Positions 8,859-63,713 of a stretch of 64,000 bases of DNA are shown piece by piece; position 1 is the first letter of the stretch, and each line of letters opens with the position of its first letter. A program made the translations under genes and the position numbers. The notes under the pieces were generated by a model. It did not search any database, was not told where the DNA came from, and was given only the letters and a program-made list of their open reading frames with translations. This stretch comes from Candidatus Moraniibacteriota bacterium (GTDB lineage: Bacteria > Patescibacteriota > Minisyncoccia > Moranbacterales > UBA1568): NCBI GenBank assembly GCA_030648835.1, contig JAUSGT010000003.1:65307-129306 (forward strand). The letters run 5' to 3'.

Positions 8859-8893
8859 GAGTTAGATATTAGGTATTAGATATTTCTTATAGT

Positions 8894-10519
8894 ATGTCTC
8901 TATTGAACCAGCTGCGACAGTGGCGGAATAACCAGGCGCGCATCGAGGGCGTAGATACTTTTCGTGTGCTTCCGAATGCCGCTTTGGAGGCGTTGACAGG
9001 AACTTTGCCGAAAAATAAGGAAGAAATGCTTGCCATCAAAGGTATCAAAGAAGCCAAATATCGGAAGTATGGAGTGACTTTGTTGAGTATCATCAAAGAA
9101 CACTCTCACTCTTCTGTCATTCCCGTCCTCCAGTCGGCGGATAAACATCCGGCGGGAATCCAGAAAGAAAAATCCTGGATCCCCGATCAAGTCGGGGATG
9201 ACAAAAATAATTTGGAAGTTCAACTGCCAAATTCTTTGGATGATGAAAAAAAACAAGAAGAAGATCAGACGCTTTCCGTCAGTCAGTTCCTCGATGGCTT
9301 GAACGTAGAGCTCTCAGGGATGGCTTCACGAGTACAGGGTGAAGTATCGAGCGTGGATATCCGTCAGCGAGTGATATATTTCACCATCAAAGACAGTCAG
9401 GACGAAAGTACCCTCAATTGTCTCATCTTTCGTTACCAGTATGATGTTTCCGGGGTAGAGATTGCCCAGGGGGACGAGGTTATTGTGGAAGGCGTTCCGG
9501 AAATTTACAAACCGAGTGGGCGCTTGAGTCTGAAAGTCGGCGTCATCGAACTGTTTGGTGAGGGGGCGCTCAAGAAAGCCTATGAAGCGCTGAAAGCAAG
9601 GTTGGAACAAGCAGGGATGTTTGCCTCGGAACGCAAACGCCCGCTTCCGGAATTTCCCGAGCGTATTGCGCTTATTACTTCAGAGCAGGGCGCGGCTATC
9701 GGAGACTTTACGATGAATTTGGGGAGGCAGGGTTTCAAAGTGGATTTTTATCCGGTCAGCGTCGAAGGGAAAAAAGCGGTGTTTGAAATTATCAAAGCCA
9801 TACGGTATTTTGATCAACACTTCAAAAAATATGATGTGTTGGTAATCGTGCGCGGCGGCGGAAGTTTGGAAAGTCTGCAAGCGTTCAACAATGAAGCTCT
9901 CGTTCGCGAAATAGCCCAGTCGAAGATCCCGACTCTGCTTGGGGTCGGTCACGAAAAAGATGTCACACTGGCCGCGCTCGTCGCCGATATGATGGTGTCG
10001 ACCCCCACGGCGACCGCCAAACAACTGCGTTTGCATTTTGACGAGGCCAGACAACTCCTACGTCACTTCGAAGTCCAGTTGCCGACGTTGTTTCGAGAGA
10101 TGCTGGCGGATGTCGGGAATGTACTGGCGAGAGAGAGCGAGGCGTTACTTGGATATCTGCATGATTTTCGTGAAATAGTAGCGACATTGCGGCAGGATTT
10201 GACCGAGAGACTGTTCCTTATTCGAGCGGCGATAGAGCAGAAAGTCGAGTTGCTCAGGCAAGGAAAGAAAAGTTTGGAAAATGGATTTGGAGCTATTTTG
10301 GAACGGGTCACGGAGCGTATCTTGCACGTGGGCGAACGTTTGGAACAGTATGATCCGAAACAAGTATTGAAGTTGGGGTATAGTCTGGTGCGGAAGGGGA
10401 CAAGGGTGGTAAAGAATATTTCGGATATGCGGATTGGTGATATACTGGACATACAACTGAGTCATGGAAAAATGAATGCGAAGGTGGAAGAGATTTTCGA
10501 CGCTCCCGTGTCGTCCTGA
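8894..10519 (+). CDS. xseA: exodeoxyribonuclease VII large subunit with N-terminal HhH/HRDC-like extension
   Basis: OB-fold VQGEVSSVDIRQRVIYFTIKD, catalytic core IALITSEQGAAIGDF, RGGGSLESLQAFNNE; N-terminal ~60 aa VDTFRVLPNAALEALTGTLPKNKEEMLAIKGI resembles a helix-hairpin-helix module. Confidence 0.9.
   Translation: MSLLNQLRQWRNNQARIEGVDTFRVLPNAALEALTGTLPKNKEEMLAIKGIKEAKYRKYGVTLLSIIKEHSHSSVIPVLQSADKHPAGIQKEKSWIPDQVGDDKNNLEVQLPNSLDDEKKQEEDQTLSVSQFLDGLNVELSGMASRVQGEVSSVDIRQRVIYFTIKDSQDESTLNCLIFRYQYDVSGVEIAQGDEVIVEGVPEIYKPSGRLSLKVGVIELFGEGALKKAYEALKARLEQAGMFASERKRPLPEFPERIALITSEQGAAIGDFTMNLGRQGFKVDFYPVSVEGKKAVFEIIKAIRYFDQHFKKYDVLVIVRGGGSLESLQAFNNEALVREIAQSKIPTLLGVGHEKDVTLAALVADMMVSTPTATAKQLRLHFDEARQLLRHFEVQLPTLFREMLADVGNVLARESEALLGYLHDFREIVATLRQDLTERLFLIRAAIEQKVELLRQGKKSLENGFGAILERVTERILHVGERLEQYDPKQVLKLGYSLVRKGTRVVKNISDMRIGDILDIQLSHGKMNAKVEEIFDAPVSS
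9116..9202 (+). repeat. palindromic insertion element (RPE-like), in-frame within xseA linker
   Basis: GTCATTCCCGTCCTCCAGTCGGCGGATAAACATCCGGCGGGAATCCAGAAAGAAAAATCCTGGATCCCCGATCAAGTCGGGGATGAC; termini are inverted repeats and each half has an internal hairpin; encodes SVIPVLQSADKHPAGIQKEKSWIPDQVGDD. Confidence 0.8.
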
Positions 10520-10660
10520 ACGCAGTGAAGCCTGCCTGCCGGCGGACAGGGATCCCGCTGTACGAGAGGGAAACCCTCTATCTACGAGATTCTTCGTTTC
10601 GCTCAGAATGACAGGTGCTATGAAATGCGTAATTTTTATAATTAAACAGTAATAATTCTT

Positions 10661-10861
10661 ATGCCAAAAGTAAATCTGAGCGATTCTTTGAAAAAAGTGC
10701 AGGAAATCATTCACTGGTTCGATAATCAAGAAGAAGTGGATGTGGAAAAAGGATTGGAAAAAATCAAAGAGGGGACAGTTCTCATCAAAGAGAGCCGGAC
10801 GCGTTTGAAAGAAATCGAAAATGAGTTCGAGGTGGTGAAAAAAGAATTGGAAAAAGAATGA
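10661..10861 (+). CDS. xseB: exodeoxyribonuclease VII small subunit
   Basis: 66 aa; VQEIIHWFDNQEEVDVEKGLEKIKEGTVLIKESRTRLKEIENEFEVV is typical XseB. Confidence 0.85.
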   Translation: MPKVNLSDSLKKVQEIIHWFDNQEEVDVEKGLEKIKEGTVLIKESRTRLKEIENEFEVVKKELEKE

Positions 10862-10990
10862 TTTATGAGTATAGATTTTTGATTTTAGAATCTGTCGCTA
10901 TTCATGAATCTTAAATCCTCTTTCAAATGTGTTGAAGTTTCTAAAAAGAAAATAATGGTTATTTGCCCGATTTTACCGGCACTGCGCTCG

Positions 10991-11014
10991 GAAACGAAAG
11001 TTTACTTTCGTTTC
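10991..11014. promoter_or_regulatory. 24-bp perfect palindrome (candidate operator) upstream of korAB, embedded in a promoter-like motif shared with the 26436 gene
   Basis: GAAACGAAAGTTTACTTTCGTTTC; flanked by CCCGATTTTAC ... CTCACTTCGTTTGGTAATAAA, which recurs at 26346-26385. Confidence 0.5.
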
Positions 11015-11069
11015 GCTCACTTCGTTTGGTAATAAAGAAAAAAGTGTAAAAATAAATAAGGAGGAGGGT

Positions 11070-62014: not shown

Positions 62015-62386
62015 ATGGATTTTGATTCACCAGAGGCTGTAGCGACATCAGCGGCAGAACAGCAGGCGCAGGAAGAAGCGGCGCAAAAAGCAGCAGCTCG
62101 GAGAGAGCGGGGGGAGGCTAAGGGGGCTGATGGCGGTATGTATGAAAGCGTGGAAGATGAAGAGGTAGCTTCCGCGGAAAAAGCACGCGAGGAGAAAGTG
62201 GCGCGCAACAAAGAGATCGCAGCGAGTCTAGCCAAGCTTGAAACACAGAGAAAAAAAGCCGAAGAGGTTTCTGCCAAACTTGCCGTGGATGATCCGATGG
62301 TGCGTGTTTATAAAGAGATACTGGTGTCGATGCAGAAAGAGAAGGACGAATTGCTCGCGGAGTTTGATGGAGAGCCGAAGCAGTAA
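62015..62386 (+). CDS. hypothetical acidic Ala/Glu/Lys-rich coiled-coil protein
   Basis: ORF only; low-complexity; locally GC-rich. Confidence 0.35.
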   Translation: MDFDSPEAVATSAAEQQAQEEAAQKAAARRERGEAKGADGGMYESVEDEEVASAEKAREEKVARNKEIAASLAKLETQRKKAEEVSAKLAVDDPMVRVYKEILVSMQKEKDELLAEFDGEPKQ

Positions 62387-62491
62387 ATCCTTTTTGGTTG
62401 ACGTATAGGCATTTCGCTGATACAATAGAAGCGCTTTTGTGTTTACTCAAGCGCTTTTTCTTATATAATTTCTTTGTTGTAAGTCAGTCAC

Positions 62492-63244
62492 ATGGAAATA
62501 TCCATCGCCGCAGAAAAACTTTTCAGCATCGGGGGGCTCCCGGTGACCAATGCTTTTCTCATTGGTTTTTTGGTAAGTGTTTTTTTGATTCTTCTCACGC
62601 AAATTGTTGTGAAGAAGATGGCGCTCATCCCTCGCGGAGCTCAAAATGTTCTTGAAGTTATTTTTGAAGGGTTGCTTTCATTCATTGAAAGTGTTCTCGG
62701 AGACAAAGCTCAGGCGCGAAGATTTTTTCCGCTCATCACGACTATTTTTCTTTTCATCCTCGTTTCCAATTGGATCGGACTTCTGCCCGGCGCGGGGACT
62801 ATCGGTCTCACGCATCTGAAGGATGGACAGGCTACCATTGTTCCCTTTTTGCGCAGTACATCGGCAGATCTCAATTTTACCATCGCGCTTTCGATTATCG
62901 TTGTCCTGACCATCCAAGTGAGCGGCATTATGGCTTTGGGCATCGTGAAATACGGGAAGAAGTTTTTTGTCAGTCCTTTTCATAAACCGTATGGTTTGGG
63001 TACCATTATGGGGCTTTTGGAATTGGTGAGTGAGTTTGCCAAACTGCTTTCTTTTTCCTTCCGTCTTTTTGGGAACATTTTTGCCGGAGAGATTCTTCTC
63101 ATCGTGATGCTTCATCTGGTACCGTATTTCATCCCTTTGCCGTTCCTGTTTCTCGAGGTGTTTGTGGGGTTCATTCAGGCAGCGGTCTTTGCCATGCTGA
63201 CCTTGGTATTCCTCAAGATGGCGATGATGGAAGGGGCTCACTGA
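62492..63244 (+). CDS. atpB: F0F1 ATP synthase subunit a
   Basis: FRLFGNIFAGEILL (conserved Arg-containing helix), 5-6 TM. Confidence 0.9.
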   Translation: MEISIAAEKLFSIGGLPVTNAFLIGFLVSVFLILLTQIVVKKMALIPRGAQNVLEVIFEGLLSFIESVLGDKAQARRFFPLITTIFLFILVSNWIGLLPGAGTIGLTHLKDGQATIVPFLRSTSADLNFTIALSIIVVLTIQVSGIMALGIVKYGKKFFVSPFHKPYGLGTIMGLLELVSEFAKLLSFSFRLFGNIFAGEILLIVMLHLVPYFIPLPFLFLEVFVGFIQAAVFAMLTLVFLKMAMMEGAH

Positions 63245-63380
63245 TTCCACTTTGGTGGAATCACCATGAGCCTGTCGAAGGGTAAATCCTTCGGTTTCGC
63301 TCCGGATGGACAGATATGGAAAATAGCTATATAATGACTCAATTGTTAATATTATAAATAATTTAATTAAGTAAAATATT

Positions 63381-63608
63381 ATGGACACAGAAGCAGCCAA
63401 AATGGTAGGGGCGGCGTTGGCCATCGGCTTGGGAGCCATCGGGCCGGGCGCGGGCATGGGGATTCTTTTCAGCAAGGCCTTGGAGGCAATCGGGCGTAAT
63501 CCGGAAGCACAGGGAAAAATCCAACTGACGATGTTTCTCGGTATCGCATTCACCGAAGCTATCGCCATCTATGCGTTGGTCATTTCTCTTATGATCCTGT
63601 TCTCGTAA
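63381..63608 (+). CDS. atpE: F0F1 ATP synthase subunit c
   Basis: [18 protein letters not shown] ... [14 protein letters not shown] hairpin with conserved carboxylate. Confidence 0.9.
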
Positions 63609-63610
63609 AA

Positions 63611-63713
63611 AATTCACTCACAACTTACAACCTACAACTCACGACGAAGAAGGCATTTTCATATATTGGATGACATAGTTGTCAGTCGTTGGTAGTCAGT
63701 CGTAAGTCCGTAA
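63611..63713. repeat. heptamer-periodic repeats between atpE and atpF
   Basis: cacaacttacaacctacaactcacgacg ... gtcagtcgttggtagtcagtcgtaagtccgtaac. Confidence 0.7.

Follow-up and report, generated by a model that had tools for sequence, protein, structure and literature searches.

Heptanucleotide Tandem Arrays at Gene Junctions and in Variable Protein Loops of a Candidatus Moranbacteria Genome and Other Patescibacteria

Introduction

Why are the spacers of ordinary operons, and even some of the housekeeping genes beside them, occupied by short arrays of seven-nucleotide units whose sequence changes from one site to the next? The question is raised by a 64,000 nt stretch of Candidatus Moraniibacteriota DNA (contig JAUSGT010000003.1 of assembly GCA_030648835.1, positions 65,307 to 129,306), which we call the window and within which all coordinates below are counted unless a relative is named. 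A sequence-only reading of this stretch had reported heptamer arrays at more than a dozen loci, most of them just upstream of start codons, and had proposed either a protein or RNA that reads heptads or a slippage process confined to the lineage. Heptamer repeats have been known since 1990, and in every phylum that has them their function and origin are unexplained. We have asked whether the arrays are real, how far they extend among relatives, how they change and what could have made them. They are repeats of a known kind, the short tandemly repeated repetitive (STRR) sequences or long simple sequence repeats (long SSRs), which we have not found described previously for Patescibacteria; their function is unproven.

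Results

The Arrays Are Real and Specific to Period 7

Between 8862 and 63638, Tandem Repeats Finder (TRF) located 21 period-7 arrays, each with 2.7-6.1 copies. They lie at or next to every position where the sequence-only reading had placed an array, and they have the sequences it had given. In total the window holds about 25 heptamer arrays of 3-6 units each, the majority intergenic, and six more are read in frame. A second, independent tandem scan (match +1, mismatch -2, score at least 10) counted 13 period-7 arrays, against 0.1 ± 0.3 expected from 20 dinucleotide-preserving shuffles. The other periods (4-6, 8-13 and 15) gave zero or one array each, and period 14 is a harmonic of 7. Base autocorrelation, a check that had been suggested for intergenic regions, was run on the intergenic sequence of the window and has its maxima at lags 7, 14 and 21 (0.303, 0.297 and 0.284), above the values at lags 6 and 8 (0.256 and 0.262); coding sequence is periodic at 3 only. 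Intergenic DNA makes up 9.2% of the window, yet 13 of the 21 TRF arrays lie mostly within it and three more straddle gene ends.

Short tandem repeats might be errors of assembly, a possibility that the sequence-only reading had itself raised. The Logan assembly of run SRR13727527 matches positions 49270-61286 at 100% identity, over 12,017 nt and eight arrays, so that the arrays are independent of any single assembler. In a relative, all arrays agree among three assemblies from three samples. An artefact tied to k = 31 is likewise ruled out, since MEGAHIT (k141), JGI, Logan and NCBI assemblies are concordant on the arrays. We conclude that the period-7 arrays are real and period-specific.

Arrays Are Widespread yet Patchy across Patescibacteria

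The host is Candidatus Moranbacteria (Patescibacteria), and the arrays are not peculiar to it. Its AI-2E transporter is matched at 100% identity by a protein on a contig from a 'Candidatus Moranbacteria bacterium' metagenome-assembled genome (MAG), and its 80 best IleS matches among species representatives belong to Candidatus Moranbacteria and other Patescibacteria MAGs (56-79% identity). A cyanobacterial host is ruled out by the taxonomy of these relatives, by a type 2 IleRS and by the presence of only four HIP1 (GCGATCGC) sites in the window.

The syntenic loci of the 80 relatives (1.44 Mb, about 20 kb per genome) hold 204 period-7 arrays, at thresholds that are biased towards well-conserved ones, against 4 in one shuffle. 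Periods from 4 to 12 other than 7 gave 6-34 arrays. Carriers include Moranbacteria, Falkowbacteria, Berkelbacteria and Parcubacteria MAGs. About half of the arrays lie inside coding sequence (112 of 217 are coding-like, an approximate class because genes in the relatives were called heuristically as the longest spanning open reading frame [ORF]). The five closest relatives in the genome collection (L001 and L004-L007, IleS 72-79% identical) have no arrays in the 17-23 kb available from each, and their AI-2E-methyltransferase spacer is 14-20 nt long, compared with 101 nt in the window. Three relatives found through a protein database, L083, L085 and L086, are closer still, with AI-2E proteins 87-90% identical to that of the window. 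L083 and L085 are array-rich; L086 has one array only, at a relaxed threshold.

The arrays are thus widespread yet patchy. The sequence-only reading had held that they would be discredited if close relatives lacked them and period 7 were not enriched genome-wide; the closest collection relatives do lack them, but enrichment is evident both in the window and across the 80 Patescibacteria loci, 56 of which carry arrays. The idea of a process restricted to this lineage fails on the same count, and on the similar repeats of cyanobacteria, Xanthomonas, Beggiatoaceae and Bacteroidetes (PMC4679880, PMC4692102). A literature search found no description of heptamer arrays in Patescibacteria.

The ileS Array Is Homogenized at Constant Length

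The most informative array is a perfect one, (GTATCAG) x4.1 at 49268-49296 (+ strand), read in frame in ileS right after the conserved KVRQPL (VSGIRYQVSG). For 29 genomes, the 28 nt after KVRQPL-x were aligned in a single register. About 25 of the 29 have four heptamers in that register. The window has GTATCAG four times; L063, L019 and L024 have four copies of GAATTAC, GAGTTAC and CAATTTT, respectively; L059 has GAATTAA GAATTAA GAATTAT GAATTAA; and L075, L068 and L002 carry units of the AAATTAA, TAATTAT and ATATCAA types. Other genomes have decayed arrays, such as GAATTGA AGATCAT AAACTAT GAGTTAA. Where the site has been substituted, identical positions are altered in all four units.

The peptide ELRIKNYELR, widespread in IleS, is a translated GAATTAA array, with a codon for Y, C or H at the place where a perfect GAATTAA array would give an in-frame TAA. 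Perfect ileS arrays are those unit variants that have no stop codon in any frame. The segment is equally long among orthologues and, within a few residues, in the non-CPR IleRS of structure 8c8u. A net insertion at this site is therefore ruled out, because array-free orthologues and 8c8u carry a segment of similar length. This is one ancient four-unit array, homologous in most Patescibacteria ileS genes and kept in constant register across the radiation, whose units have changed in concert. It shows homogenization at constant length. Selection on the protein cannot account for this, because the encoded peptides diverge widely.

Orthologous Junctions Differ, and Strains Do Not

In three relatives whose flanking genes are 87-90% identical to those of the window, shared junctions carry different arrays. 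The inverted pair between recO and a DUF11 gene is built of CTAAT-NN in the window, of CAAAT-NN in L083 and L086 and of CCAAATA in L085. Between the AI-2E and methyltransferase genes, the window has a GTAT/ATAC pair, L083 a CAAAT pair and L085 a single GAATCA-N array. One array, in the spacer between a class II aminoacyl-tRNA synthetase (aaRS) gene and an M16 peptidase gene, is homologous throughout; it has three units in the window (GATTCGT AATTCTT GACTCTC, 55865-55885) and four in L083 and L085. In the M16-AI-2E spacer, which is 78 nt long in the window, L083 has a 127-aa PF05635 gene lying between inverted GAATCTN arrays (L083 9555-10006). PF05635 is the family of 23S rRNA intervening-sequence proteins, and the Avd proteins of diversity-generating retroelements are among its members.

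Copy-number differences between strains, which slippage would predict and which the sequence-only reading had proposed to look for, were sought in assemblies of two related species and were not found; from the species of the window itself only one identical Logan contig was available. In species P0002, three contigs (ENA, JGI and Logan) are 99.93-99.95% identical and all eight arrays are unchanged; the gap-free spans are 11,924 nt with the 8 arrays (99.93%) and 4,300 nt (99.95%). In species P0031, two arrays are unchanged over about 10 contigs. Species P0107 and P0109 have no arrays in the region examined. Because copy number is constant among strains, the process must be slow relative to that of classical contingency loci. 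The slippage idea of the sequence-only reading is supported by the gain or loss of units and the concerted change seen among orthologues, and not in its lineage-specificity or in polymorphism among strains. Because orthologous arrays gain and lose units and change in concert, a misalignment (slippage-type) origin is the best supported.

Array Size and Unit Sequence Are Not Random

Array length has a sharp mode at 30-31 nt, or about 4.4 units, which is the same in coding-like and intergenic arrays. Among perfect arrays, 23 have 4-4.9 units and 15 have 3-3.9. Of 127 arrays classified by unit pattern, 29 are AAAA, 28 have a single variant unit and 4 are ABAB; growth by doubling (10, 17, 31 nt), considered as a source of the 31-nt mode, is rejected on the rarity of the last class.

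The units are AT-rich, and they resemble one another within a genome: 23.6% of unit pairs from the same genome are within one mismatch, compared with 11.0% of pairs from different genomes and 6.8% of random heptamers matched in composition. In 300 label shuffles the within-genome figure was never attained. Some units recur widely, AATTTTC in 12 genomes and AATTTCC in 8. Differences between the units of an array are confined to 303 columns, where random placement gives 353 ± 5. When an array has two variable columns, they are next to each other in 51 of 84 cases, against an expected one third. Columns with at least three different bases are not in excess (38 versus 35). A strict design of conserved core plus free spacer is therefore rejected: the variable columns are few and adjacent, but the excess of such columns is missing.

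Perfect (AATTTYC)4 arrays followed by similar degenerate heptamers (ACAAATTCCAATGAYNAAATTTYCAATGA) occur in L025 (4116-4190), L046 (5339-5400 and 19633-19690), L024 (22090-22150) and L032 (17285-17345). At the end of several of them, CCAATG may supply the ATG of the downstream ORF.

Coding Arrays Fall in Hypervariable Loops

Six arrays of the window are read in frame: two in argS and one each in ileS, tatD, an HhH-GPD glycosylase gene and the gene for a 2-oxoacid:ferredoxin oxidoreductase alpha subunit. The translations that the sequence-only reading had given for argS, ileS and tatD are correct, and the other three arrays are new. On the + strand, the first argS array, (GAATCTG) x4.4 at 44018-44048, encodes ESGILNLESGN in a variable loop of the N-terminal domain, and the second (GAATCAT..., 44430-44456) lies in a length-variable loop near residue 247. 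The glycosylase array, (AACAGTC) x3.4 at 25975-25998 (+), encodes ETVSSQQST. The tatD array, TGATACA AAATACA TGATACA TAATACG at 61586-61612 (+), encodes RDTKYMIHNT, and a different array (AAATCAA...) occupies its site in L085 and L082. In the oxidoreductase gene, positions 12754-12776 are in frame and the last residues are EKLKAIS.

Across the relatives, coding arrays are concentrated at a few sites. In IleS, 40 of 41 arrays fall at four of them, around residues 245-266 (9 arrays), 482-486 (6), 678-684 (10) and 833-854 (15). ArgS has 20 of 22 at three: residues ~104-115 (7 arrays from 7 genomes, including that at 44018-44048), ~247 (2) and ~478-505 (11). TGT has 15 coding arrays, 10 of them at residues ~306-309 and 3 at a second site. 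All these hot spots are hypervariable loops, and those of ArgS and TGT also vary in length.

A second class of repeat is also found in frame in housekeeping genes, namely GC-rich palindromic elements (GTCATTCCCGCGAAGGCGGGAATC / GGATCCCGGGTCAAGCCCGGGATGAC). One lies in tatD (61257-61345; TatD peptide CHSREGGNPG...SGSRVKPGMT), and partial copies are found at 9151-9203 (xseA), 15759-15784 (sufS) and 24516-24538. Such elements are present in L014, L016, L030, L034, L049, L052, L059 and L082 as well, and the Logan contig L081 ends within the tatD element. In species P0031, tatD has a different, 36-nt GC-rich in-frame palindromic element, which some 99.9%-identical strains carry and others lack (L110 6473-6508 versus L108). 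In the alignment, the array-hosting N-terminal loop of ArgS has peptides such as SGSRDVTNGAQSIEMLKQVQHD or ARNASRNDAGGAQDD in L065, L039 and L008. Judged by sequence, they look like translated palindromic repeat elements; because of this resemblance, the loop would seem to accept several kinds of inserted repeat.

Single Arrays Adjoin Start Codons and Inverted Pairs Form Hairpins

Nine arrays of the window end 1-12 nt from a start codon, in keeping with the sequence-only reading. A Shine-Dalgarno-like motif lies within 20 nt of the start in only about 6 of 60 predicted genes. Because the genome hardly uses Shine-Dalgarno sites, the arrays fill the position of the ribosome-binding region. Some of these arrays stand alone. 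(TTAGATA/TTAGGTA) x3.3 at 8862-8884 is 9 nt upstream of the xseA ATG (8894). (AAAAGCT) x5 at 12754-12788 covers the stop codon of the oxidoreductase alpha gene and ends 1 nt before the beta-subunit ATG (12790). (CTAAT-NN) x5 at 16145-16179 separates the stop codon of sufD from the start of sufS (16133). The longest array, (TAATACC/TAATACA) x6.1 at 32338-32380, fills its spacer, 11 nt upstream of an ATG at 32392; the 59-nt spacer before that ATG is a G-free RNA, unstructured, with a minimum free energy (MFE) of 0. TAATACC TGATACA TAATACG TAATACT at 57208-57234 is 10 nt upstream of the AI-2E transporter ATG (57245). The TTACTGG array that had been reported earlier is present and minor (59130-59157): two perfect units and one offset copy, placed where a small ORF on the - strand has its 3' end.

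At seven junctions the arrays form inverted pairs, two more than had been recognized, as metS-tatD and atpB-atpE had been listed as single or unpaired. At sufS-sufU, CTAAT-NN (14759-14789) lies 6 nt upstream of the sufU/NifU-like start (14752, - strand) and ATTAG-NN (14836-14866) overlaps the sufS stop (-22.9 kcal/mol, z -3.75). In the rpmI-rplT spacer, GAAT-NNN (38767-38791), 12 nt from the rplT start, is matched by NNN-ATTC at 38813-38839 (-17.9 kcal/mol, z -3.1). At infC-rpmI, AATTTCC AATTCCT AATGTCT (39056-39080) lies at the rpmI start, and (ATTAG-NN) x4.6 (39089-39120) lies directly 3' of the infC stop (39132, - strand). At recO-DUF11, CTAAT-NN (50554-50578) begins 3 nt past the recO stop and (ATTAG-NN) x4.4 (50677-50707) is 80 nt upstream of the DUF11 ATG (-40.1 kcal/mol, z -3.9); a HIP1-like palindrome is found at 50635-50642, inside the 98-nt loop. 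At AI-2E-methyltransferase, (GTAT-NNN) x5.3 (58273-58309) begins 6 nt past the AI-2E stop and ATAC-NNN (58326-58365) ends 3 nt before the methyltransferase ATG (58369; -29.3 kcal/mol, z -4.5). At metS-tatD, GTATCAG GTAGCAT GTATCAG GTATTAG (60951-60979), an arm missing from the sequence-only reading, is directly 3' of the metS stop, and (ATAC-NNN) x4.6 (61005-61036) lies 7 nt upstream of the tatD ATG (61044; -27.5 kcal/mol, z -3.4). In the atpB-atpE spacer, TACAACY (63616-63638) is paired with GTTGTCA GTCGTTG GTAGTCA GTCGTAA GTC (63678-63708), which precedes the probable ATG of atpE by a few nt. The CTAAT/ATTAG family spans 8.8-50.7 kb of the window; the ATAC/GTAT family is found only at 49-62 kb.

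Six of the seven pairs fold as long hairpins (-15 to -40 kcal/mol, z -2.0 to -4.5), made of 5-6 bp segments with regular mismatches between them and no T-run; the fold of the atpB-atpE pair does not stand out from shuffles (z -0.8). As leaders and hairpins, the arrays probably influence translation initiation and the stability or processing of mRNA. With respect to the gene that follows, arrays near start codons point either way (22 are C>G and 13 are G>C) without significant bias, and this argues against a strand-specific sequence reader.

The sequence-only reading had set the arrays apart from CRISPR, REP elements and simple terminators, and we agree. CRISPR repeats are 24-48 nt long with unique spacers of similar length; the units here are 7 nt and contiguous. 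REP, BIME or MITE elements are rejected because the loops of the seven pairs, 8-98 nt long, have no significant similarity to one another and the flanks are without direct repeats. In the part of the window scanned (44001-64000), terminator-like sites number 24 against 22.8 in shuffles and promoter-like sites 35 against 26.4. Both counts are near those of shuffles, and the sites lie essentially outside the arrays, although one weak promoter-like site (58321-58348) overlaps an arm. At the gathering score, Rfam matches only a transfer-messenger RNA (tmRNA) in the window, at 39700-40102.

Other Features of the Window

That tmRNA (- strand, 112.9 bits) adjoins smpB (40170-40613, -) and immediately precedes the infC-rpmI-rplT operon, in which both spacers hold heptamer hairpins. 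Beyond smpB, purA (adenylosuccinate synthetase) and guaB (IMP dehydrogenase), at 40751-43684 (-), coincide with the 4-kb stretch of highest GC in the window (0.52) and have no counterpart among the 80 syntenic relatives; a CPR genome may here have gained genes of purine interconversion in one lineage only. Every 4-kb bin has positive GC skew, and the majority of genes are on the + strand. An 87-nt tandem repeat (34325-34534, 2.4 copies, 72% matches) lies within a surface-type protein gene (34073-35542) with Big_13 and TSP3 repeats. A 93-nt tRNA-Gln called by ARAGORN at 1456-1548, inside a P-type ATPase ORF (1257-3026), is probably a false positive.

Discussion

Origin of the Arrays

How do such arrays arise? 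We think it somewhat probable that these heptanucleotide repeats of the STRR/long-SSR type are produced by out-of-register copying and sieved by a filter of tolerance. Copying out of register in 7-nt steps would seed arrays and keep their units homogeneous; replication slippage, template switching and gene conversion within an array are candidate routes. Selection would act as the filter, so that arrays survive only at places whose sequence can vary freely, in spacers and in tolerant loops, and in essential genes it would hold array length and frame constant. If the copying rate differs among lineages, array-rich and array-free relatives would result. Single arrays near starts would then serve as AU-rich unstructured leaders and inverted pairs as long imperfect intercistronic hairpins. 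Any effect on RNA would be a by-product, or a sequence property since co-opted, rather than a signal decoded heptad by heptad.

Several observations weigh against this proposal. No copy-number change was seen in 8 arrays of three strains or in 2 arrays of about 10 contigs, in the two related species. The 30-31 nt mode and the scarcity of arrays of 3-3.9 units are unexpected under simple slippage by one unit. Length-conserving conversion must be assumed, because one-unit slippage in an essential gene would pass through lethal frameshift intermediates. The recurrence of unit families suggests a sequence preference or copying between arrays.

Alternative Explanations

The alternative that survives best, though we judge it unlikely, is that the arrays are cis-elements for a multi-subunit or multi-domain protein that contacts one core of 4-6 nt in every 7 nt. 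With about four cores, an array would be a landing pad of ~31 nt, for Shine-Dalgarno-independent initiation or for RNA processing. TRAP on its triplet repeats offers a model, and S1, cold-shock or Sm-like domains could act likewise. The preferred size of 4.4 units (~31 nt), the nine arrays within 12 nt of a start codon, the low number and adjacency of mismatch columns (303 and 51/84) and the recurrence of AATTTTC and AATTTCC across genomes all fit this idea, which resembles proposals made for TAACTGA repeats and for Nostoc heptamers (PMC4679880, 10.1101/2022.06.06.494920). Yet start-proximal orientation is mixed, 22 to 13; several unrelated unit families stand side by side in the window; units differ at orthologous junctions despite flanking genes 87-90% identical; relatives with the same operons do without arrays, in spacers of 17-20 nt; about half of the arrays lie in coding sequence; and, without an excess of columns with three or more bases, the pattern of core and free spacer is not general. 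A dedicated heptad reader, one of the two explanations offered by the sequence-only reading, is therefore not supported.

We doubt still more that the arrays represent selfish or mobile DNA of small size, or products of ectopic gene conversion, spread as ~31-nt blocks, singly or as inverted pairs, in the manner of Rickettsia palindromic elements (RPEs), MITEs or the small dispersed repeats of Nostoc. Blocks of this kind would explain the uniform size, the occupation of protein surface loops in frame, as in RPEs, and the reuse of genome-specific units: L085 has CCAAATA at three places (ileS, tatD and the recO junction), CAAAT-NN recurs at two junctions of L083, and within the window unit families are regional, with ATAC confined to 49-62 kb. 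The inserted PF05635 gene of L083, flanked by inverted arrays, would fit as well. Nevertheless, the loops between arms (8-98 nt) are mutually unrelated, there are no target-site duplications, and no transposase or integrase is associated with the arrays. Moreover, the ileS array was inherited vertically in one register rather than inserted repeatedly, and its segment has a counterpart of similar length in 8c8u.

A more speculative thought, in which we place equally little confidence, is that a dedicated trans-acting system writes and homogenizes the arrays: either a copying enzyme with a 7-nt register or a binding protein that spans about four heptads (~31 nt). Were this so, the 31-nt mode, the recurrent units and the concerted change at constant length would reflect that machinery instead of passive slippage. 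The arrays would be ribosome landing pads independent of Shine-Dalgarno pairing, or processing sites, and the system would extend from Patescibacteria to cyanobacteria, Bacteroidetes and Beggiatoaceae.

Phase variation, in which gain and loss of units would toggle genes, is, like assembly artefact, effectively excluded. Contingency loci do have short tandem repeats at gene 5' ends and within ORFs, and one orthologous array does differ by a unit between relatives whose flanking genes are 88-90% identical; however, copy number is constant among 99.93-99.98%-identical strains of the two related species from different samples, the essential housekeeping genes ileS and argS, where a 7-nt change would be lethal, are among those hit, and the downstream genes are ordinary operon members (suf, infC-rpmI-rplT, atp) and not surface or virulence genes. 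Uptake sequences of competent cells (DUS and USS) are found between genes in inverted pairs and also in protein segments of low conservation, as the arrays are, and biased uptake with homologous replacement could alter the tolerant ileS site at no cost in length, but a signal of this type is highly improbable here, given many different units per genome in place of one motif, a density far under that of DUS or USS and an ileS array inherited in register, and we know of no receptor for array DNA.

Significance

If heptamer arrays are common in Patescibacteria, their range extends to small, streamlined genomes, from which DNA without a use should be purged. A natural experiment is on offer in hundreds of MAGs that keep the same gene order and include both array-rich and array-free members. 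The ileS array, with its very long persistence in an essential gene, its concerted evolution and its fixed length, constrains the possible mechanisms and allows rates to be measured. There are practical consequences, too: arrays and in-frame palindromic elements break short-k assemblies and can mislead the calling of start codons.

Comparison with Known Systems

Rickettsia palindromic elements are selfish DNA of ~100-150 nt and conserved sequence, carried in frame within protein genes. Like them, the arrays are short repeats tolerated in frame at recurrent sites in surface loops of housekeeping proteins; unlike the arrays, they are palindromic and have no tandem 7-nt units. TRAP-type sites and, in the ctxAB promoter of Vibrio cholerae, TTTTGAT heptads (10.1101/2021.05.14.444153) also present a short core at fixed spacing, by which several protein subunits are recruited. 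Those, however, are single regulated loci with a known binder, whereas here there are dozens of loci with mixed units and orientations. The GGGAATC repeats of Xanthomonas and GGGGAYT repeats of Nostoc (PMC4692102) are closer: four units are commonest, some positions of the unit are conserved and others variable, arrays may form inverted pairs, and related species occupy the same junctions with repeats of varying length and sequence. They differ in being G-rich and quadruplex-capable; the window arrays are AT-rich and quadruplex-incapable.

Near absence of Shine-Dalgarno sites is typical of cyanobacteria and Bacteroidetes. It has been reported for Beggiatoaceae as well, whose TAACTGA repeats abut or overlap start and stop codons where such sites are missing (PMC4679880). 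Because arrays and the lack of Shine-Dalgarno sites coincide in the window too, a link between heptamer arrays and Shine-Dalgarno-independent initiation becomes testable. The repeats of the marine Beggiatoaceae (PMC4679880) come in 2-6 copies a few nt from starts, in spacers without Shine-Dalgarno sites; as here, some overlap the upstream stop codon and a few lie in ORFs at tolerant positions. They consist of one dominant heptamer in one orientation, in contrast to the many unit families and both orientations of the window, where TAACTGA has 0 occurrences.

The cyanobacterial STRR units are CCCCAGT (STRR1), TTGGTCA (STRR2) and CAACAGT (STRR3). We take the array at 25975-25998 (AACAGTC) to be made of the STRR3 unit; all other arrays differ from the three. 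Most window units are AT-rich, not G-rich as in STRR1, and the arrays are short. As here, the STRR of Calothrix, Nostoc and Anabaena (Mazel 1990) are dispersed heptamer arrays of at least 3-4 units, those of Nostoc often lie within 30-100 nt of start codons or overlap them (10.1101/2022.06.06.494920), and units such as TTCAAAA and CTAAT-NN are shared.

By every defining trait, the arrays are long SSRs of the STRR type. As relayed by two later papers, heptanucleotides are the most abundant class of long SSR in many prokaryotes, and polymerase slippage has been proposed as their source (Mrazek, Guo & Shah 2007, in PMC4679880 and PMC4692102). In that account they share with our arrays the tandem 7-nt units, the predominance of period 7, the mostly intergenic location and the sporadic phylogeny. 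Indeed, the arrays have at least three head-to-tail 7-nt copies, with period 7 dominant, and are dispersed and preferentially non-coding. What sets Patescibacteria apart is that orthologous in-frame arrays can be tracked in one register through a deep radiation.

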